Positions 2,688-57,862 of a stretch of 61,315 nt of DNA are shown here, piece after piece. Under the pieces are notes generated by a model, which saw only the letters and a list, made by a program, of their open reading frames with translations, had not been told where the DNA came from and did not search any database. Origin of the DNA: a virus (lineage: Duplodnaviria; Caudoviricetes); IMG/VR virus record IMGVR_UViG_3300043587_000032, positions 1 to 61,315 of that record, one strand, 5' to 3'. Made by a program: the position numbers and the translations under genes. Within the stretch, counting starts at the first letter, position 1. Each line of letters begins with the position of its first letter.

Positions 2688-3824
2688 TCAGCCAACGATC
2701 ATCATCTGGTAGAAGTTCGTCACGAAGCCGGTCGTCGGAATCTGCACCACCAGGTTGTTGGCGTCAGTGCCGGACACCGGCTTGTTGTCGGCCTCGATCT
2801 GCTGCCCCGGGTCGGTGCCTGCCGAGCCGAATCGCAGCACGAACGCGGGGCACAGGTTGTTGAGACCGTGGTTGATAGTGACCGGCGTGTAGCCGCCGGA
2901 CGGTGCGCCGACCGTGAAGATCCCCGAGGTCGTGGTGGGGATCGCGAGCGGGCCGATCTTCCGGCCGACCACCAGCGGATCGATACCGGCAGTCGCACCG
3001 TCCGCGCCGACCGCCGCCATGCCGAGACCCGGGTTGAACCCGACCTTCGAGCCGACCACGGTGATGCCGTACCCGGCGGTGAGGTTCTGCGTGAACGGGT
3101 TCGTCCACACCTGCGGGTTCGTGTCGACAACGATCGCGCCGTTCGTGCCGGTGCCGGTCGCGGTCTGCATCCACAGGGTCCGCGCGGTGCCGTTGTAGCC
3201 CTCGACGACGGTCCCGGCGACGATCGCGCCGGTGTTGCCGGTCGGCGAGTCGGCGGGCCGGGTCATCGGGACCGCGGCGCCGTTCCACTGCCACAAGCCC
3301 ATCTGGCTGGTGGTGGTCTGTGCGGTGAGCAGGACACGGTCACCGGCGACCATGGTGCGGCCGTTGATCGCGGCGCCCGGCGCGGCAATCGACACATTGG
3401 CCAGGGCCACGATGTCGACGTGTTCCTTGAAGTCCATGCCGACCTGGATCCCGGCAATGGCTGTCTGGAACTGGGCGTACTCGACGGCTTGGCCGCCGGT
3501 GCTGGCCGCGGGGAGGTTCGAGAACTGCTGGCCGTTCATGTCCACCGAGGCGTTCGGCGGGAGCATGGACGCCCAGCGCAGGGCCTGCACGGCGGCGGTG
3601 AAGTCGGAGATCGTGCTCGCGGTCTGCGTGCCGGTGTGGGTCGCCCGGTTGCGCAGGTCGATCGCCACGCCGCCGATCTGGATCTTGACGGTGCCCGCGG
3701 TCGAGTCGAACCAGATGCGCCCGTCGGTGACGGTGCCGCCTGCGTTCCCGGCGATCGCCTCCAGGACCGCGTTGATGATCTGGTTCTGCGTCATGTCGAT
3801 CGCAGTGAGGAACTTGCGTGTCAT
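2688..3824 (-). CDS. Minor virion / tail fibre protein
   Basis: Gly/Thr-rich; GDRVLLTAQT...GLW and INHGL motifs typical of phage fibre/collar proteins. Confidence 0.65.
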   Translation of the reverse strand: MTRKFLTAIDMTQNQIINAVLEAIAGNAGGTVTDGRIWFDSTAGTVKIQIGGVAIDLRNRATHTGTQTASTISDFTAAVQALRWASMLPPNASVDMNGQQFSNLPAASTGGQAVEYAQFQTAIAGIQVGMDFKEHVDIVALANVSIAAPGAAINGRTMVAGDRVLLTAQTTTSQMGLWQWNGAAVPMTRPADSPTGNTGAIVAGTVVEGYNGTARTLWMQTATGTGTNGAIVVDTNPQVWTNPFTQNLTAGYGITVVGSKVGFNPGLGMAAVGADGATAGIDPLVVGRKIGPLAIPTTTSGIFTVGAPSGGYTPVTINHGLNNLCPAFVLRFGSAGTDPGQQIEADNKPVSGTDANNLVVQIPTTGFVTNFYQMMIVG

Positions 3825-6116: not shown

Positions 6117-6895
6117 AACCCCCTCGCCGGGACGGGCACGACGGCGTCGCCGTGCCTAGCAAGCAGGTTCGTCAGGTCCCGGAAACCGAGCCAGGCGTAG
6201 CCGTCCTCACCCCACGACGTGCCCCACGAGTTGGCCAGCCGGACGGCCTCGCGTTCGTAGTCCACGCCGACGGCCACGATCTGGTGACCGCCAGCCAGGC
6301 CCGAACCGAAGTCGACCGCGAGCCACTCATCCGGCGACACCATTGCGTCATGCCGGTGGGTCTCGTTCATCGATTCGTACCAGGGGATCCCGAGGCTCAC
6401 CGGGGAGAGCTGGAGCAGCTTCAGCACCGTGTCCACGGAGAACGCGTGTCGGTAGCCCGTGATATACCCGGCCGCCTTCAGCGCCTTCATGGACCACAGG
6501 CCCGTCGAGCCCGTGTCCTGCTCGGGATACCGGCCGGGAATCTGCCGGTCGTCGAGGGCCGTCTCCTGCTCGTAGAGCCGCACCGCGTCGCCCTCGGTGA
6601 ACATCCAGTCGCCATAGAACGGTTCCGTCATCAGGAGCCCCAGCGCGGCGAACGCGGTGCACGCGCCGATCGGGCCCTGGTTCCAGATCGGCGCCCGGCG
6701 GGTGTGCAAGGTCGTGCGGGGCCGGGCGACGCTGCGCACGAAGGCCTCCGCGTCATATTGCCGCGACTGCTCATCGTGGAGTACGTGCCGACCGAGGCCC
6801 GGCCCCTGCTCGAGTCGGTGGAAGGTCGATCCCTCCACCGGCGGCACGCCCAGATCGAAGTCAAGGCCGCCGTTGGTGCTCACGTGGTCATGCAT
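6107..6895 (-). CDS. Papain-like (C1) cysteine peptidase
   Basis: NQGPIGACTAF (Gln/Cys), GGHQI (His), NSWGTSWGEDGY (Asn). Confidence 0.85.
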   Translation of the reverse strand: MHDHVSTNGGLDFDLGVPPVEGSTFHRLEQGPGLGRHVLHDEQSRQYDAEAFVRSVARPRTTLHTRRAPIWNQGPIGACTAFAALGLLMTEPFYGDWMFTEGDAVRLYEQETALDDRQIPGRYPEQDTGSTGLWSMKALKAAGYITGYRHAFSVDTVLKLLQLSPVSLGIPWYESMNETHRHDAMVSPDEWLAVDFGSGLAGGHQIVAVGVDYEREAVRLANSWGTSWGEDGYAWLGFRDLTNLLARHGDAVVPVPARGLWQ

Positions 6896-6946
6896 CCCAT
6901 CACCTCGGGAAGGAGCCTACCGTCTGTCCCCCCAGGATGGGGTGGA

Positions 6947-8257
6947 TCACGCGGTGGTCGGGTCCCACTGGGAATCCGGCCGGTCCCAGTACTCCGCGTT
7001 CGGCCGCCACGGCAACATGCCGGAGTGCCCGCGTACGAGACCCTGCGGCCAGTCCCGCTCTTCGCGCTGCCCGCGCCAGCTGATTACGTCGGCCGAGTTC
7101 GGGTCCGCCGACGGGTCCGTTGCGCGCCGGAGGCCCATGCCGAACTCCGGCCAGCCGAGCAGGACCGCGGACCCGCGGGGGCGCATGTAGCGCTGCCCGT
7201 CGAGGTTCTTGCCCTGACCGGCGTGAGCTTCGGTGATGATTGCGCAGCCGTGGCGCTCGCGGATGCCGTCGATCACGCGCAGTACCTCCCCGGCCACCGT
7301 CTCATCGTTCATGTTCGCCCCGCCGGTGAGCTTGTAGAGCGGGCCAATGACCAGGATGTCCGGCGCGGTGTTGCCTACGTAGCGCTCGAGCCACGCCGCG
7401 TCCGTGCCCTTCAGCAAGTCCATGCCGCCGGTGCGGAACTCGACGAACATCCGCTTTCCCCAATCGACCGGCGGGAGCTGCGCAACGTCGCGCTGCGCGT
7501 CCACCACGCCGACCATGCGGCGGTAGCGGCGGCGGGACTGGCGCTGCGAGTTCTCACAGTCGACGATCGAGACGCGCATCTCCGAGTTTCCGTCAAGGAT
7601 CGGCTCGCCGCGGAACGGGTGGATCCCCGCCGCCGTGCAGCACGACACCTGCGCAATGAACTCGGACTTCCCGAGCCCCTCATCCCCCGTGAGCATCAGC
7701 CGGTCACCTCGCTCAATCAAGCCCGGCACGAGCCAGTCGTACTCCTCGAAGCTGGAGAGCAGGTCTACCAGGGTGTGCGGCTCGACGGTGCTGGCCGACG
7801 ACGCATAGGTGGTGAGCTCTTTCAGCGTGGCTTGGATCCGGCCGATGGCGTCCGCGGTCGGCGTCGGCTCGCCGGACTCCCACTCGCGATCGAGGGACTG
7901 AAGCTCGCGCTCGCAGGCCTCCGCGAGCCGACGACGGCCGTACAACTCGGTGACGCGGTCGGCGTACTGGTCGGCGTTCGGGACGTGGAAGAACGAGCCG
8001 TGCAAGTCGATCAGGTACGGGCCAGGGATCTTCGACAGCAGGCCGAGGTCTTCGACGGCGGCGAGCACGGTGATCGGATCCACCGGCATGTGCTTGATGA
8101 CCATGTCCCGGATGATCCCGGCGACGGCGCGTGCCTGCGGTGACCAGAAAGCCGCGGTCGGCACGGCAAGGAAGATCTGTTCAACATCCTTTGGCGCGGA
8201 AAGCATGGCCCCAAGGAGAGCCCGCTCGGTCTGCATGTCGTATGCGTTATGGGCCAT
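6947..8257 (-). CDS. Replicative helicase (DnaB N-domain plus RecA-like AAA domain)
   Basis: ERALLGAML DnaB N-terminus, GDEGLGKS Walker A, PRGS motif. Confidence 0.85.
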   Translation of the reverse strand: MAHNAYDMQTERALLGAMLSAPKDVEQIFLAVPTAAFWSPQARAVAGIIRDMVIKHMPVDPITVLAAVEDLGLLSKIPGPYLIDLHGSFFHVPNADQYADRVTELYGRRRLAEACERELQSLDREWESGEPTPTADAIGRIQATLKELTTYASSASTVEPHTLVDLLSSFEEYDWLVPGLIERGDRLMLTGDEGLGKSEFIAQVSCCTAAGIHPFRGEPILDGNSEMRVSIVDCENSQRQSRRRYRRMVGVVDAQRDVAQLPPVDWGKRMFVEFRTGGMDLLKGTDAAWLERYVGNTAPDILVIGPLYKLTGGANMNDETVAGEVLRVIDGIRERHGCAIITEAHAGQGKNLDGQRYMRPRGSAVLLGWPEFGMGLRRATDPSADPNSADVISWRGQREERDWPQGLVRGHSGMLPWRPNAEYWDRPDSQWDPTTA

Positions 8258-29936: not shown

Positions 29937-29977
29937 AGGGTCAATCTATCCCCCCAAAGTGGGGGGTGTCAAGGGCC
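29916..29977 (-). repeat. 62-bp exact direct repeat, copy 1 (promoter-operator plus first 7 codons)
   Basis: Identical to 31919-31980; TTGACA-C6-ACTTT-G6-A-TAGATT. Confidence 0.9.
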
Positions 29978-38159: not shown

Positions 38160-38232
38160 GGGATCAATCTATCCCCCTATTCAGGGGTGGTCAAGGGTTG
38201 TGTCCCCCTCGTTTGGGGGGTATGTTGTGGGT
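38160..38232. promoter_or_regulatory. Back-to-back pair of C/G-palindrome promoters
   Basis: Minus: TTGACC..G5-A-TAGATT-N6-ATG; plus: TTGTGT-C5-N6-G6-TATGTT-N6-ATG. Confidence 0.8.
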
Positions 38233-52537: not shown

Positions 52538-52655
52538 AATCTATCCCCCCAAAGTGGGGGGTGTCAAGGAAAACCTTCGCGGCAGGGGTATGAATCTGCG
52601 GCGTGTCTCCCCCTCGGCTCTATCCCCCCAGGTTGGGGGGCCCTATCCTGAGCGC
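52538..52655. promoter_or_regulatory. Divergent control region with two C6-N5-G6 palindromes
   Basis: 52545-52561 in TTGACA..TAGATT (minus); 52624-52640 before TATCCT-N6-ATG (plus, transfer operon). Confidence 0.75.
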
Positions 52656-52865
52656 ATGAAGATACGAACCGCAATCGCAATTGCAGGGCTCACCCTGCTG
52701 GCGATCAACCTCATCGCGGGAGTCTCGATGCTCGCGGTCTGGATCATCGCCACCTACGCCGCGCACCTCCCCGTTCGGGACTACGTCGGCCGCCGGACCG
52801 GATTCGCCCGAGTCGATCTCATCGAGCCCACTGAGACCGTCGAGACCGCTGAGATCGGAGACTGA
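52656..52865 (+). CDS. Small membrane protein (Spd-like), first gene of the transfer operon
   Basis: 69 aa, hydrophobic N-half, leaderless. Confidence 0.6.
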   Translation: MKIRTAIAIAGLTLLAINLIAGVSMLAVWIIATYAAHLPVRDYVGRRTGFARVDLIEPTETVETAEIGD

Positions 52866-54480
52866 CCAATGCGCCTGCCCACGCTCCCCGTAACCCGCCT
52901 TCGGCTGTTCGCCACCCTGCCGGTTGCGTCCGCCGCCATCATCTCGTTCGACTCGGTCCGCCACCTTGCGGAGTCCGCCGGGTTCGGACCGCTCGCGTGG
53001 CTCTTCCCGCTCACCATGGACGCCGCCGTGGCGTTCGGTACGGACCTGTGGATTCGGCGAAAGCAGTCCGCCGCGATGAGCAAGGCGCGCGCACTCGCGC
53101 TCACCGTCATGGCCGGGTCGCTGGTCGCGAACACCGTGGACCACTACATGACCGGATCGATCCTGGGCGGTCTGCTGGGGGCGGTCCCGCCGACCGTGCT
53201 CGCCTGGATGTTGCTGGTCCTGCATCAGCACGGTCTAGGCGAAGCGGACCAGGATGCACCGGACCAGACAGACCGCTTCTCTGGTCCCGGACCGGTCGCC
53301 ATCTCCTACACGGTCCCGCGGTTCCTTGCGGTCCCGCGGTCCACGGTCCACGTCGAATCGGACCGCGCCATGGACGCGACGGTCCGAGAACTGGTCCAGA
53401 TCGTCCGGACCGACGGCGAGCCCGGTCCGGTCCCGAACTGGGAGAAGCCGGACCGGACCGGGCCACTGCCGCAGCCGCGTAAGCGGACCAGCGCCGCCCG
53501 GACCCCCGCCACCACGGTCCGGCGGTCCGCCACCGCGAAGGCGCCCGAGGACCGCGAGATCGTCGCGTGGATCTCGGACCAGCCGACGGCGCCGACCAAG
53601 CAGCAGATCATGGACCGCTACCCGATCGGGTCCGGGCGCGCCTTGCGCCTGCGGACCGCCGCCACCGCGAAGGAGTCGACCGATGAGTAAGGGCAAGCAG
53701 CAAGGCGGTGCGCTCGATATCGCCGCCGGTGCGCTGATGGCGAAGTTCTCCATCTGGGCACTGGGCAAGCTCGGCAAGGGCACCCGCCGCCTGGTCTTCC
53801 GGTGGCGGCGGGCCATCTCGCCGGTCCTGTTCGCCGGTCTCGTGTTCCTGCTCGCCGTGGTCCTGCGCGAGACGGTCCCGTGGCTTTGGTGGACCGCCGC
53901 GGTGCTGCCGGTCTGCGGCGGTCTGCTCGCCTACTTCGGACCGGTCCTGTCCGAGAGGTGGTCCGGTCTGGTTACGCGGCTGGTCCCGGCTGGCTTGGAC
54001 CGCGGCCGTGACGGCGTGCTGGACCGCCCGGTCGAGCGGATCTATCTCGCCGCGATGCTCACCACCATCGGGACCTACCTCGCGGTCCGGTGGGGTTTCG
54101 GTCCGAGCGAGTTCACCGGGTGGACCTGGAAGATCGGTCTGCTCGTGTTCGGCGGGTCCTGGTGGTACCACCGCCGCATCCGGACCGCCGGTCGCGCGGA
54201 CCGCGTTGCGAAGCGCTGGACCAAGTTCACGCGGTCCGACACGTGCCCGGCGAACCTGAAGCCGCTCGTCGGGTCCAAGGTCCTGAGTGCGACCGGCGAG
54301 GGTCGCAACTCGGTGCTGAAGGTCCGGGTTGCCGACGCCGGGACCGCCGCGAACGTCGAGCGTCTTGGCAACCCGCTCGCGGCGTATTTCAAGATGCGGC
54401 CGGGCTCGGTCCACATCAAGGGCGACATGGTGGACGCCGGGGTGGCCTGGTTCACCTTCATGCCGAAGGACCCGTGGTCG
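52790..54480. repeat. Dense GGWCC (GGACC/GGTCC) array
   Basis: About 57 sites by hand count in about 1.7 kb, 25 of them in 53240-53660. Confidence 0.85.
52869..53690 (+). CDS. DUF2637/Spd-like membrane protein with C-terminal HTH
   Basis: SFDSVRHLA..AWLFPLTMD..SLVAN..H..AVPP four-TM domain; TKQQIMDRYPIGSGRALRL HTH. Confidence 0.8.
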   Translation: MRLPTLPVTRLRLFATLPVASAAIISFDSVRHLAESAGFGPLAWLFPLTMDAAVAFGTDLWIRRKQSAAMSKARALALTVMAGSLVANTVDHYMTGSILGGLLGAVPPTVLAWMLLVLHQHGLGEADQDAPDQTDRFSGPGPVAISYTVPRFLAVPRSTVHVESDRAMDATVRELVQIVRTDGEPGPVPNWEKPDRTGPLPQPRKRTSAARTPATTVRRSATAKAPEDREIVAWISDQPTAPTKQQIMDRYPIGSGRALRLRTAATAKESTDE

Positions 54481-55596
54481 GGCAAGATCCCGCACCCGAT
54501 GCCCGAGCCGGGCTCGATCTCGCTGAAGTCGACCCGCGGCCGGTTCAAGATGGGGGAGCTCGCGAACGGCGACGACCTGATCTATCAGCTCCAGCACACC
54601 TTGGCCGTCGGCATGAACGGGTCCGGCAAGTCGATCTGGCTGCACGCGCTCATGGCCTGGCTGGTCGCCTGCTCGGACTGTCTGGTGGTCGCCATCGATA
54701 TGGCCGGTGGCGCGACTCTCACCGTGTGGCGTAAGGCGTTGAGTCTGCCCCTTGCGACTGACCTGGATTCGGCGATGGTGGTGCTGAACTCGGTGTTTGC
54801 GGTGATCGCGGATCGCGAGCGCCAGCTTGGCGTGGCTTCCGAACTCGATGATGACGCGGCCGACTCCTTCGAGCCGACGCGGGAAACGCCGTGGATGGTG
54901 TTGATCATCGATGAGTTCCCTGACCTGCTCGCGGAAGCGAAGACGGCCGGGGTCGAGAAGCAGGTGATCACCCTGCTCGGCCGGATCGCGAAGAAAGCCC
55001 GCAAGTGCGGAATCCGGCTGTTCTTCGCCAGCCAGAACGGCACCAAGGTCGACCTGGGCTCGAAGGAGCTTCAGGCGCAGCTCAGGGCCATTGTCGGACT
55101 CCAGCTCGACGTGCAGCAGAGTAAAAACCTGTGGGGCGAGCAGATGCGCATGGGGTGGAACTCGACGATCCTCCAGTCCGGACAGTTCCTGCTGAAGGAC
55201 GACGAACACACCATGCCCGCGATCGCGAAGGGTCTCTTCGTCGAGATGAAGGAGCGCCGCGAGCAGGCCAATAAGGCCTCTGAGCTGCACAAACAACTGG
55301 AGCCGTCAGCCAATGCCGCCTTGATCGGCATGGCGGGTTCATACCTGCCGCCGGAGATCGTGGTGCCCGCCGAGCCCGGCGATCCGATCCTGGAGTACCT
55401 GGCCACCGTCGATGGCACCGGCGCGCGGGCGGCCGACATCGTGGACCTAGTGCCCGGCGTGGGCTCGAAGGCCACCGTCTTCCGGCGGCTCGGGCGGCTG
55501 AAGGAGGAAGGGCTTGCGCACTCGCGCGGCGGCGTGTGGCACGCGGGGCCGGACACGCGTAACCCGCAGGACCGCGCGGACGAGTCCGCGGCGTAG
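53683..55596 (+). CDS. traB: TraB-like FtsK/SpoIIIE DNA translocase
   Basis: N-terminal TMs, GMNGSGKS Walker A, LIIDE Walker B, ARKCGI..ASQ, C-terminal wHTH (SKATVFRRLGRL..G.W). Confidence 0.85.
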   Translation: MSKGKQQGGALDIAAGALMAKFSIWALGKLGKGTRRLVFRWRRAISPVLFAGLVFLLAVVLRETVPWLWWTAAVLPVCGGLLAYFGPVLSERWSGLVTRLVPAGLDRGRDGVLDRPVERIYLAAMLTTIGTYLAVRWGFGPSEFTGWTWKIGLLVFGGSWWYHRRIRTAGRADRVAKRWTKFTRSDTCPANLKPLVGSKVLSATGEGRNSVLKVRVADAGTAANVERLGNPLAAYFKMRPGSVHIKGDMVDAGVAWFTFMPKDPWSGKIPHPMPEPGSISLKSTRGRFKMGELANGDDLIYQLQHTLAVGMNGSGKSIWLHALMAWLVACSDCLVVAIDMAGGATLTVWRKALSLPLATDLDSAMVVLNSVFAVIADRERQLGVASELDDDAADSFEPTRETPWMVLIIDEFPDLLAEAKTAGVEKQVITLLGRIAKKARKCGIRLFFASQNGTKVDLGSKELQAQLRAIVGLQLDVQQSKNLWGEQMRMGWNSTILQSGQFLLKDDEHTMPAIAKGLFVEMKERREQANKASELHKQLEPSANAALIGMAGSYLPPEIVVPAEPGDPILEYLATVDGTGARAADIVDLVPGVGSKATVFRRLGRLKEEGLAHSRGGVWHAGPDTRNPQDRADESAA

Positions 55597-55710
55597 TCGC
55601 AGAATCGCAGTCTCGCGCCACACCCGTAATGTGGGCAGACGTGAGACTGCGTGATTTTGAGATCAACATGCCCCCGGACCAGGGGGTTAGATCTGGAATC
55701 AGCGGTACAG

Positions 55711-55755
55711 AAAGGCCCTCCTTACCCCGGGAAATCTCAGGGAAGGAGGGCCTTT
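55711..55755. terminator. Bidirectional terminator after traB
   Basis: AAAGGCCCTCCTT..AAGGAGGGCCTTTT. Confidence 0.8.
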
Positions 55756-55763
55756 TCGCAGCT

Positions 55764-56087
55764 TCAGGCGCCTTTGGGCGACGCTCCCCAGGGTCCGAAG
55801 GACTTCCAGACCTGCCGCGACACCACCACGGAGTGCGGATGCGCGCGCTGCCGCTTGATGGCCTGCGTCTTGTCCAGGGCCTTCCAGGTGGCCTCCGGGT
55901 CCTCGATGTCCTCGGTGGTGCCCCACTCCGTCACGGCCTCGATGCGGCCGGGGAACTGCACGGTGTCGAGCTCCTGCCACGGCATCGGCAGGCCCATGGC
56001 GTGGACCCGCGCCCAGTACTGGGCGCGGTCTTCGTCCGGGTCATAGCTCGGGTACTTGAACACGAAGGCGTGGCGGACCTGCGTCAT
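55764..56087 (-). CDS. Hypothetical protein
   Basis: GAGGA RBS; ATGA coupling. Confidence 0.55.
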   Translation of the reverse strand: MTQVRHAFVFKYPSYDPDEDRAQYWARVHAMGLPMPWQELDTVQFPGRIEAVTEWGTTEDIEDPEATWKALDKTQAIKRQRAHPHSVVVSRQVWKSFGPWGASPKGA

Positions 56088-56272
56088 GGCGCTTTCCTCT
56101 CGATGTCGGCGGCGAGGATGGCAATTGCGGTGGCGGCGTTTACCAGCAGAATCAGGGCCACGCCGATGACGTACGGCGACGCAGCGGACTCGTGATCGAT
56201 GGACGTGCAGAACCAGAAGAACGCGGTGCAGGTGGCGACCATCGCAAGCCTGGCGCGGATCACTTCGTCCAC
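56084..56272 (-). CDS. Two-TM membrane protein
   Basis: Hydrophobic segments. Confidence 0.5.
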   Translation of the reverse strand: MDEVIRARLAMVATCTAFFWFCTSIDHESAASPYVIGVALILLVNAATAIAILAADIERKAP

Positions 56273-56778
56273 CTGGCGAGCAGCTCGGCACCGACGACGG
56301 TGATGGCGCCGCGGACGCCGACGGCCTTGGCGTCGATCAGGGACTGGATTGCCCGGCGAGCCTGCGCACCCTCGAGGACGACCTCGGTGCCGGACACCAC
56401 GCGAACGCTCATGCGCTGAAGAACGGGATCAATGTGCAGGGTGCCCGCGTCGGCGTGCCGCAGCGCACCGAGCCGAAGGGGGGACTTGCGGGGCATGGCG
56501 CCCATGGCCTTGGCTCGCTTTCGCTCGTTGCCGAGATGGCTGCCGGTCTCCGAATTGCACGGGGTGCAGGCGGGACGGATGTTGCCGCGGACGTACCGGC
56601 CGCCCTCGACGCCGGGAGTGATGCGGTCCACCGAGATGGTCTCGTCGGTGACGAAGGTGCCACACCGGAAGCAGGGGGCCTTCGTGCCGTCGCCGAACTG
56701 CTGGAGCAGCCAGGCGCGGCGAATGCGGCGGGTTTGACTGGAGCCGCGGGAGTTGGTGTTCGAGGTACCTCGGGTCAT
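56260..56778 (-). CDS. HNH endonuclease
   Basis: CFRCG..VDRI.PG..GGRY..GNIRPAC.PCN. Confidence 0.8.
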   Translation of the reverse strand: MTRGTSNTNSRGSSQTRRIRRAWLLQQFGDGTKAPCFRCGTFVTDETISVDRITPGVEGGRYVRGNIRPACTPCNSETGSHLGNERKRAKAMGAMPRKSPLRLGALRHADAGTLHIDPVLQRMSVRVVSGTEVVLEGAQARRAIQSLIDAKAVGVRGAITVVGAELLARWTK

Positions 56779-57119: not shown

Positions 57120-57824
57120 CTACTTCCCGGCGAGCTGAGCGAACGCATCCAGGCCATTGCTCACGCCCGTCCACCACGGCCCGCCAGCCGCCGCCACCGT
57201 CACCACGGCCAGGACACCAGCCGCGGCAGTCAGGATCCACGTCGCAATCACCTCACCCTTGACGATCGTGCCCGGCAATCCCCCCGCACGGAACCGCAGC
57301 ACCGACGGGTAGCCGACAGTGAACCAGCGCTTGCCCTGCCGTTTGACCAGTGGCCACGCCGGGTGCGGCACGCCGGAGAGCGTGCAGGCGTCGCCGATGA
57401 ACCAGACGTGCGTCAGGCAGCCAACGGTCACCGAGGAGCCCAGGAAGATGCCCCACGCCGCGTAGGGCGTGAACTGGAGCGCCGCGTACAGGCCGCCGCC
57501 GTGGATGAGCGCAAAGGCGGTGGTGTGCGTGAACGTGCGGTGACAGCCGGTCGGCCGATCCTTCTCGGTGCGCGTGGCCTGGTAAATCACCTCGGACAGC
57601 CACCGGTAGAACCAGCAGATCGCGGGCGAGAGCAACGGGATCATCTTCGAGGCGACGGCTGGCTTGTGATCGATGTCCGGCATGAGTGCACACAGGGCCA
57701 CCAGGATGGCGTAGACGGCATAGATCCCAAGGTGGCGCGCTGCCCCCTCCAGGTCGGGCGTGGGCACGAGCGGGGCAACGAGCAGGCCGGACACCACGCC
57801 GGAGACGAAGTGTCCCTTACTCAT
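57120..57824 (-). CDS. Membrane metal-dependent hydrolase (YdjM-like)
   Basis: GH, MPDIDH, HRTFTH, H...GDA.T..GVP motifs; multiple TMs. Confidence 0.8.
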   Translation of the reverse strand: MSKGHFVSGVVSGLLVAPLVPTPDLEGAARHLGIYAVYAILVALCALMPDIDHKPAVASKMIPLLSPAICWFYRWLSEVIYQATRTEKDRPTGCHRTFTHTTAFALIHGGGLYAALQFTPYAAWGIFLGSSVTVGCLTHVWFIGDACTLSGVPHPAWPLVKRQGKRWFTVGYPSVLRFRAGGLPGTIVKGEVIATWILTAAAGVLAVVTVAAAGGPWWTGVSNGLDAFAQLAGK

Positions 57825-57862
57825 TATGTCGTCCACCTCCCCACGGTGTGTACAGTTCCATC

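Follow-up and report, generated by a model that had tools for sequence, protein, structure and literature searches.

Conjugation of the Streptomyces type requires only the translocase TraB and a small DNA locus, clt, and in the motors FtsK and SpoIIIE a winged helix reads short words for DNA loading. The words in question, KOPS (FtsK-orienting polar sequences) and SRS (SpoIIIE recognition sequences), are 8-bp polar sequences that occur chromosome-wide and are replichore-skewed. Here, we analyse the DNA of a putative soil actinophage, the IMG/VR record IMGVR_UViG_3300043587_000032 (61,315 bases, analysed in full and hereafter called the window), in which a gene for a TraB/FtsK-like translocase and the gene directly upstream of it are densely written with the word GGWCC (W being A or T). 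We lean towards reading this array, at positions 52790-54480, as a giant clt-like recognition zone for the helix-turn-helix (HTH) domains encoded by the same module.

The described clt loci are small; here and in all comparisons below, the papers cited by PMC number are represented by the excerpts available to us. In pIJ101 the clt covers ~54 bp, in which an inverted repeat accompanies three direct repeats of 5 bp; that of pJV1 has nine 9-bp direct repeats; and in pWTY27 the locus extends over 175 bp, 16 of them lying inside traA, and contains two inverted repeats as well as 7-bp direct repeats (DC1, DC2) in four copies (PMC3583192). In pSVH1, the winged helix reads 8-bp motifs with its helix 3 (PMC3583192), and TraB proteins more generally recognise short repeated motifs via this helix (PMC3583192, PMC4447253). 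Binding sites inside coding sequences are known as well: SpdA2 of pIJ101 binds a site (sps) within its own gene (PMC4170104), and RepAM of pMEA300 has repeated binding sites inside its own coding sequence (PMC2440964). As to phages, Thoma et al. (2015) suggested that phage homologues of SpdB2 help to spread actinophage DNA (PMC4447253), and the use of Streptomyces-type machinery by phages of mycelial bacteria has so far been a suggestion (PMC4447253).

The locus described here resembles the TraB/clt systems in that a patch of short words adjoins the gene for a membrane translocase that is FtsK-like and ends in a winged helix, and in that the words are element-specific; the position of part of the pWTY27 clt inside the tra gene is a further likeness. 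Yet the described clt loci consist of 3-9 repeats of 5-9 bp, mostly direct, whereas the array exceeds them about tenfold in length and richness, is equally represented on both strands and sits on a phage. With FtsK/KOPS and SpoIIIE/SRS the locus has in common the fold of the motor and a winged helix at the C-terminus, but its words are confined to one 1.7-kb patch without orientation bias, with the remainder of the genome at background. Nor does it look like the sites of SpdA2 and RepAM (one palindrome in sps, a few identical 8-bp hairpin repeats for RepAM), being instead a kilobase-scale array over two genes. A literature search found no such array and no TraB-clt pair of a tailed phage, the main papers on TraB recognition repeats and their supplements lying outside its reach.

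The GGWCC array and its two genes

The array and the two genes that carry it are as follows.

52795..53142, sparse 5′ fringe of the array: 5 GGWCC, 1 in a small open reading frame (ORF) and 4 in the membrane-domain codons of gene 1
53183..53657, both strands, array block A: 26 GGWCC in 475 bp, in the linker and HTH codons of gene 1
53823..54472, both strands, array block B: 25 GGWCC in 650 bp, in TraB codons ~47-263 (predicted membrane helices and beta domain)
52869..53690, + strand, gene 1: DUF2637 protein of 273 amino acids (Pfam PF10935, E 7e-9), with 31 GGWCC
53683..55596, + strand, gene 2: TraB/FtsK-like translocase of double-stranded DNA (dsDNA), 637 amino acids (PF01580, E 1.5e-9, above the cut-off), with 25 GGWCC before 54480 and 3 after it

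The initial annotation of this DNA had, by hand count, put about 57 GGWCC words into about 1.7 kb and about 25 of them into 53240-53660. An exact count returns these very numbers, 57 (28 GGACC and 29 GGTCC, against 6.6-7.6 expected) and 25. Markov models of order 0-3, fitted to the remainder of the window and simulated 1000 times per order, predict 6.6-6.9 words for 52790-54480 (standard deviation ~2.6), with a maximum of 15-17. Among 1117 other segments of 1691 bp the mean is 5.7 and the maximum 12. The whole window holds 258 GGWCC, and 1-kb bins outside the array contain 0-7 each; overall, the word occurs outside the array at ~0.85 of expectation (3.4 per kb versus ~4).

GGWCC is also the top enriched 5-mer of the array (57, with 5.7 predicted by the remainder of the window), and the enrichment extends weakly outward: GGACCG/CGGTCC occurs 35 times (1.8 expected), CGGACC/GGTCCG 28 times (2.4 expected) and CGGACCG/CGGTCCG 19 times (0.67 expected). 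The base following GGACC is G at 35 of the 57 array sites, compared with 63 of 200 background sites. The words form two dense blocks 170 bp apart, with irregular spacing (median 21 bp), and a repeat search found no long repeat unit. Short tandem copies, for example 5-base and 7-base doublets, occur in the linker codons of block A. A perfect 14-base inverted repeat of doubled words (53420-53433 and 53450-53463, with a 16-base spacer) was noticed in the middle of the same block.

Two controls separated the DNA level from the protein level. In the first, the protein was kept and synonymous codons were redrawn 2000 times from the usage of the window; in the second, each gene's own synonymous codons were permuted. 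With codons redrawn, the second half of gene 1 (53229-53687) is expected to hold 7.2 ± 2.1 GGWCC with a maximum of 15, against 25 observed, and TraB's N-terminal part (53683-54480) 8.1 ± 2.2 with a maximum of 16, again against 25. The membrane part of gene 1 (52869-53228) has 6 where 1.8 are expected, and in the ATPase part of TraB (54481-55593) the array fades (3 versus 4.3 expected). Permutation of a gene's own codons reached at most 21 for gene 1 and 25 for gene 2, against 31 and 28 observed. The excess beyond these synonymous-codon controls places the signal in the DNA, and amino-acid composition as its cause, which the initial annotation had named as the explanation that would overturn its view, is ruled out by them in each gene part. 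Its other statements about the array hold up likewise: the words lie in both orientations, the 56 in-gene sites use all three codon phases (6, 18 and 32 sites), and the array spans both genes before fading in the ATPase domain. At the same time, roughly fourfold the genome background of GGWCC is already predicted from the protein sequences by themselves; hence, amino-acid order carries part of the signal too, and residue order also seems to be bent towards the word.

Both genes encode an HTH domain, as the initial annotation had proposed and as structure models now bear out. The product of gene 1 has a membrane domain (about residues 8-122) of four to five long helices, a linker of ~100 residues (122-222) that is modelled as disordered with a predicted local distance difference test score (pLDDT) below 50, and a C-terminal three-helix HTH (residues 228-271, pLDDT ~90). 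In an alignment of its homologues (A2), the linker, unlike the conserved ends on either side of it, is hypervariable in both sequence and length. It resembles the Spd spreading proteins in being a membrane protein encoded beside TraB. BLASTP detected no sequence similarity between gene 1 and SpdB of pIJ101 (E 0.84), and unlike SpdB2, which has been described as a non-specific DNA binder, gene 1 is a DUF2637 protein with a specific-looking, tethered HTH.

Gene 2 shares its first 8 bases with the end of gene 1. In its model (pLDDT 84.9), long helices (residues 10-183) are followed by a beta domain (199-260) and then by the motor (287-533); at the C-terminus comes a winged HTH (568-621) with helices at 568-575, 583-589 and 596-608 and a wing at 612-621; the long helices, which in the model probably form an N-terminal membrane domain, and the HTH both have pLDDT values of 82-91. 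The best structural matches of the motor are FtsK motor domains (Foldseek, 2iut_A, E 9e-19). The protein is 24% identical to the Tra protein of pIJ101 and collinear with it through the HTH. The HTH itself stays below Pfam thresholds (E 0.064), and homologues reach the HTH_11 and TrmB cut-offs (P0008).

Words and reader domains in homologous loci

Homologous loci, designated L001 and so on, were retrieved with alignment A1; searches of genome and viral contigs with the single TraB sequence gave none, and tblastn of gene 1 against phages gave zero matches. We fetched 56 loci, and together with the window 53 of the 57 sources contain the TraB landmark. Merging at 90% identity left 42 representatives, 30 of which (window included) are at least 6 kb long and include the 5′ end of traB. 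An unbiased scan then took the most significant local 5-mer cluster of each locus, with clusters at log10 p <= -9 called strong.

In 20 of the 30 loci, where chance would give a share of ~0.4, and in 16 of the 19 loci with a strong cluster, the top cluster falls on the upstream gene or the 5′ end of traB—the zone occupied by the array in the window. The word differs between loci. GGWCC is the top in-zone 5-mer in 11 loci and GGTAC, with the full word GGTAC(C), in 3; TGCCA (part of CRGTGCCA), CTGGC and CGCCA (both from CRCCAG) and AACCA (from CRACCA) lead in 1 locus each, as do GATCA and CGCTC, which are weak (log10 p -4.7 and -6.0). Non-palindromic words occupy both strands, with 10 + 11 copies in L035 and 19 + 19 in L046. 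In L010 the top 5-mer cluster falls outside the zone, yet 6-mer and codon tests indicate the zone; five loci (L018, L025, L041, L055, L056) have weak clusters only, outside the zone, and two (L049, L051) have strong clusters outside it. L017, L035, L037 and L038, short loci excluded from the 30-locus tally, carry arrays too. The same scan found no array of such scale in pIJ101, where the best hit was 4 copies of an 8-mer not confirmed as clt, and no comparable array in the FtsK-like locus of Streptomyces phage Tomas.

Some of the clusters found elsewhere merit a description of their own. In L003 and L004, a CGGGA(C) cluster (27 versus 36 and 23 versus 23 outside) at ~6400-7900, downstream of traB, covers − strand genes, one of which resembles by eye the YdjM-like protein of the window. 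L047, L051 and L052, whose TraB-like proteins are 23-31% identical, have GCCCA/AGCCCA clusters at, or past, the translocase gene's 3′ part; the classical clt of pWTY27 takes the same position, on the 3′ side of the gene (PMC3583192). The upstream gene varies in architecture as well. In L011 and L012 (~3300-3800) a Cys/His-rich module is inserted into the linker between DUF2637 domain and HTH, and the linker therefore tolerates whole-domain insertions; the protein P0105 carries precomputed PF13392 and PF05551, which we take to be HNH-type endonuclease families. In L001, L003, L004 and L018 the HTH is joined to a second type of membrane domain, and L046 (2482-3423) has the opposite order, in which the HTH precedes the linker and the membrane domain comes last.

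Whether a lineage's word is written by synonymous choice was computed for 19 loci over the conserved TraB codons 25-265, with synonymous codons resampled by the usage of each locus's own ATPase part. For the window, GGWCC gives a z of 8.8 and no other word is in excess; L001, L002, L005, L006, L012, L027 and L029 likewise have GGWCC (z 5.0-8.1). L007, L009 and L011 combine GGWCC (z 4.5-5.4) with GGTAC (z 5.2-7.9), L010 and L015 have GGTAC (z 8.9-9.5), L016 has GTGCCA (z 12.7), L019 has GGTAC (z 5.2) with GTGCCA (z 7.1), L035 has GTGCCA (z 7.9) with GGWCC (z 3.7), and L046 has CRACCA (z 5.4). L021 reaches only z 2.1, for CRCCAG, and L003 shows no word in excess. Taken by word, the z ranges are 4.5-8.8 for GGWCC (11 loci), 5.2-9.5 for GGTAC (6 loci), 7.1-12.7 for GTGCCA (3 loci) and 5.4 for CRACCA (1 locus), while foreign words stay near z 0 in the same codons.

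Individual sites turn over with density being kept: across 11 loci, GGWCC occupies 69 distinct positions, and of the window's 25 sites in the TraB segment, 8 are absent from the 10 GGWCC-type relatives and 12 are common to at least 4. Such a pattern is what would be expected of a protein-binding array coevolving with its reader, and the closeness of the words GGTCC, GGTACC and GGTGCC would fit a stepwise drift of one specificity.

The HTH of gene 1 and that of TraB both vary between word groups. HTH classes were counted by hand, without phylogenetic correction, in the 16 closer loci (L003, L021 and L046 excluded), taking z >=4.5 as strong. Loci with the gene 1 helix ..RAL[RK][IL] have strong GGWCC in 10/10 cases and those with other gene 1 helices in 1/6; for TraB, the figures are 11/13 when helix 3 starts with S and 0/3 when it starts with A. 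These counts slightly favour the HTH of gene 1, and both HTH proteins may bind the words. A complex prediction for full-length TraB and the gene 1 protein scored 0.00, which gives no verdict and was used neither way. The initial annotation had suggested looking in homologous operons for different words that covary with the HTH. This check gave a positive result: different words do occur, at the same place and through lineage-specific synonymous codons. Their covariation with the HTH is untidy.

Readings of the array in its phage setting

The initial annotation had placed the two genes in a transfer operon, but the module is not one of a plasmid or of an integrative and conjugative element. The record is a whole tailed phage of ~61 kb with direct terminal repeats and an estimated completeness of 100%, in which genes for a tape measure, a major head protein, two portal-like proteins, a major tail protein, a head-tail adaptor and a DnaB-like helicase are recognised. 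Neither tyrosine/serine recombinases (PF00589, PF00239) nor a ParB domain (PF02195) were found in it, so that a ParB/parS centromere does not apply. Judged by third-position GC content, nearly all genes are on the − strand, and the TraB module, a three- or four-gene + strand island opposite to the rest of the phage, is among very few + stretches. Blastn of the region against a plasmid collection returned zero matches, and the best tblastn matches to plasmid TraB proteins are only 25-31% identical across the motor. Most TraB homologues in the protein database lie on metagenome contigs of 58-63 kb, which implies a phage family of similar genome size; distant relatives are found in Amycolatopsis genomes, and a Pseudonocardia metagenome-assembled genome is the named source of one homologue.

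Because the arrays keep their position while lineages write different words by synonymous choice, a recognition zone for HTH domains is the best reading of the locus, and we think it somewhat more probable than otherwise that the window's array is such a zone, clt-like and read by the HTH domains of its own module. Two candidate readers are encoded beside it, namely the C-terminal winged helix of TraB and the HTH of gene 1 on its ~100-residue disordered membrane tether. With about 50 close-set words on both strands, many HTH copies would be recruited and, once bound, would keep this part of the phage dsDNA at the membrane. TraB hexamers could assemble there, and the motor would then engage and pump phage DNA across the membrane or septum in the manner of clt-directed transfer. 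The data show the array with its selection at the DNA level, its constant place, the replacement of the word between lineages and the layout of domains. Word binding, the identity of the reader and binding-driven translocation of phage DNA are steps that we infer; as to purpose, one may speculate about spread between hyphal compartments, entry into spores or transfer from cell to cell. Of the earlier proposal of an HTH loading zone, the DNA-level array stands and the interpretation is supported in part; the covariation does not single out one of the two HTH domains.

Several observations weigh against this interpretation. The clt is described as 50-175 bp with 3-9 repeats at or near the tra 3′ end, whereas the array has 57 words over 1.7 kb, on both strands, and occupies the gene upstream together with traB's 5′ third. 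The core word is merely 5-7 bp long. The plasmid TraB model NF041214 (NCBIfam) aligns with residues 221-470 only and scores 49.3 bits, the cut-off being 800. Among the relatives, the cluster is found downstream of traB in L003 and L004, L018 has none at the usual place, and several loci carry two words at once. Furthermore, loci with identical TraB helix 3 and different gene 1 helices differ in main word (L010 versus L005 and L029; L035 versus L006), contrasts that point away from TraB helix 3 as the sole reader. Finally, no plasmid-type or actinomycete integrative and conjugative element-type genes for replication or integration were found in the phage, which is why conjugation-like transfer would be unprecedented here.

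A broader version of the proposal is possible but doubtful: a widespread family of ~60-kb, integrase-less, tailed soil actinophages with a conjugation-type dsDNA pump and its own kilobase-scale, fast-evolving clt, moving its genome without virions. Movement from one hyphal compartment to another, or into adjacent cells or spores, could then be a second route of spread, and word and reader could diversify such that only the phage's own DNA is moved. If the recognition-zone reading is true, the idea that such machinery spreads phages gains a concrete cis element, a 1.7-kb zone with two candidate reader domains, and natural specificity variants are available (GGWCC, GGTACC, CRGTGCCA). It would also mean that codon and residue choice can inscribe a strong DNA code, regulatory or structural, in two protein-coding genes, a code that gene-centred annotation would overlook, and word/reader pairs might come to serve actinomycete genetics as orthogonal handles with which translocases are targeted to DNA.

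The rival that survives best, although we still consider it unlikely, is that only the membrane-tethered HTH of gene 1 reads the array and would tie phage DNA to the membrane to serve replication, organisation, partition or operon autoregulation, without any loading of TraB. The gene 1 HTH class follows GGWCC strength slightly better than TraB helix 3 does, the contrasts between loci of identical TraB helix 3 fit it, and the densest block lies inside gene 1, which recalls SpdA2 of pIJ101 (PMC4170104). Half of the array, however, is written in TraB codons, translation of the two genes is coupled, and every locus seen has them side by side. In addition, L027 has a GGWCC array despite a different gene 1 helix, and of six loci that share one gene 1 helix (the window, L001, L002, L012, L007 and L011) only L007 and L011 have added GGTAC, the window having no GGTAC enrichment.

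That the array is a functionless by-product of slippage, gene conversion or mutational bias in a hypervariable, low-complexity region appears improbable. Block A does lie in a variable, disordered linker with short tandem doublets, and part of the array of L046 coincides with proline/glutamine-rich peptide repeats, but block B is written into conserved TraB codons in which the excess stems from synonymous choices (z 8.8). Such processes would also have to account for lineages that build different words at one place and keep their density during site turnover in the absence of a long repeat unit.

A replication origin, with iterons in coding sequence, or a recognition site for phage packaging is slightly more improbable still. 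Here, the precedent would be the repeated in-gene binding sites of RepAM in pMEA300 (PMC2440964), and a terminase-like gene lies 5.5 kb from the array; the RNA fold of block A is also stabler than that of shuffled sequences (z -3.8). Such a fold is expected, and hence uninformative, because the word and its complement are equally numerous. The module contains no initiator-like family, the array region (GC content 0.70, the most GC-rich kilobase nearby) has no AT-rich stretch evident on reading the sequence, and GC skew shows no origin-like switch. Moreover, 57 sites in 1.7 kb far exceed the iteron sets in the described examples available to us, and the array accompanies the TraB module rather than the DnaB-like helicase or the terminase.

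GGWCC is the site of AvaII-type enzymes. The weakest explanation, that the words are targets of a host factor—a restriction-modification sink or decoy, as the initial annotation had also considered, or a host nucleoid protein or translocase—can draw on the fact that the hosts of the relatives, and with them the factor, may differ, but it is very improbable and we reject its restriction form, since GGWCC is not avoided elsewhere in the phage, related arrays use non-palindromic words in both orientations, no methyltransferase of the families PF00145 (C5) or PF01555 (N6/N4) was found, 57 cleavable sites would harm the phage, and the array always travels with two phage-encoded HTH proteins.

Control elements and neighbouring genes

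Two further features lie at the start of the module.

52541..52648, upstream of the module: divergent control region, a putative promoter and operator
52656..52865, + strand: small ORF of 69 amino acids, the first gene of the + island, with a hydrophobic N-terminal half (read from the sequence), no Pfam family and 1 GGWCC (52795)

The control region contains a promoter-like element on the − strand at 52541-52562 (TTGACA, a CCCCCC-N5-GGGGGG spacer, TAGATT), and a second copy of the palindrome, without a -35 hexamer, lies at 52620-52648, directly before the first + strand ORF. This element recurs in the phage: near-identical copies of ~40 bases (TTGACA, CCCCCC-N5-GGGGGG, ATAGATT) occur exactly at 29946, 31949, 33180, 34569 and 52541 and as variants at 38169, 48966 and 52620, always oriented to the − strand and in most copies with an ATG 8-12 bases downstream. 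Its 10-base core has 12 matches with at most one mismatch, where 3.3 are expected. It resembles a strong promoter used repeatedly, whose spacer contains a palindromic operator and which serves leaderless or short-leader genes. The start of the TraB module is flanked by one full and one operator-only copy.

Downstream of traB, an ORF on the + strand (55629-56195) has no family match and may not be a gene. It is followed on the − strand by an HNH endonuclease gene (PF14279, PF01844) at 56260-56778, just downstream of the module, and by the gene for a membrane protein of the YdjM family at 57120-57836.

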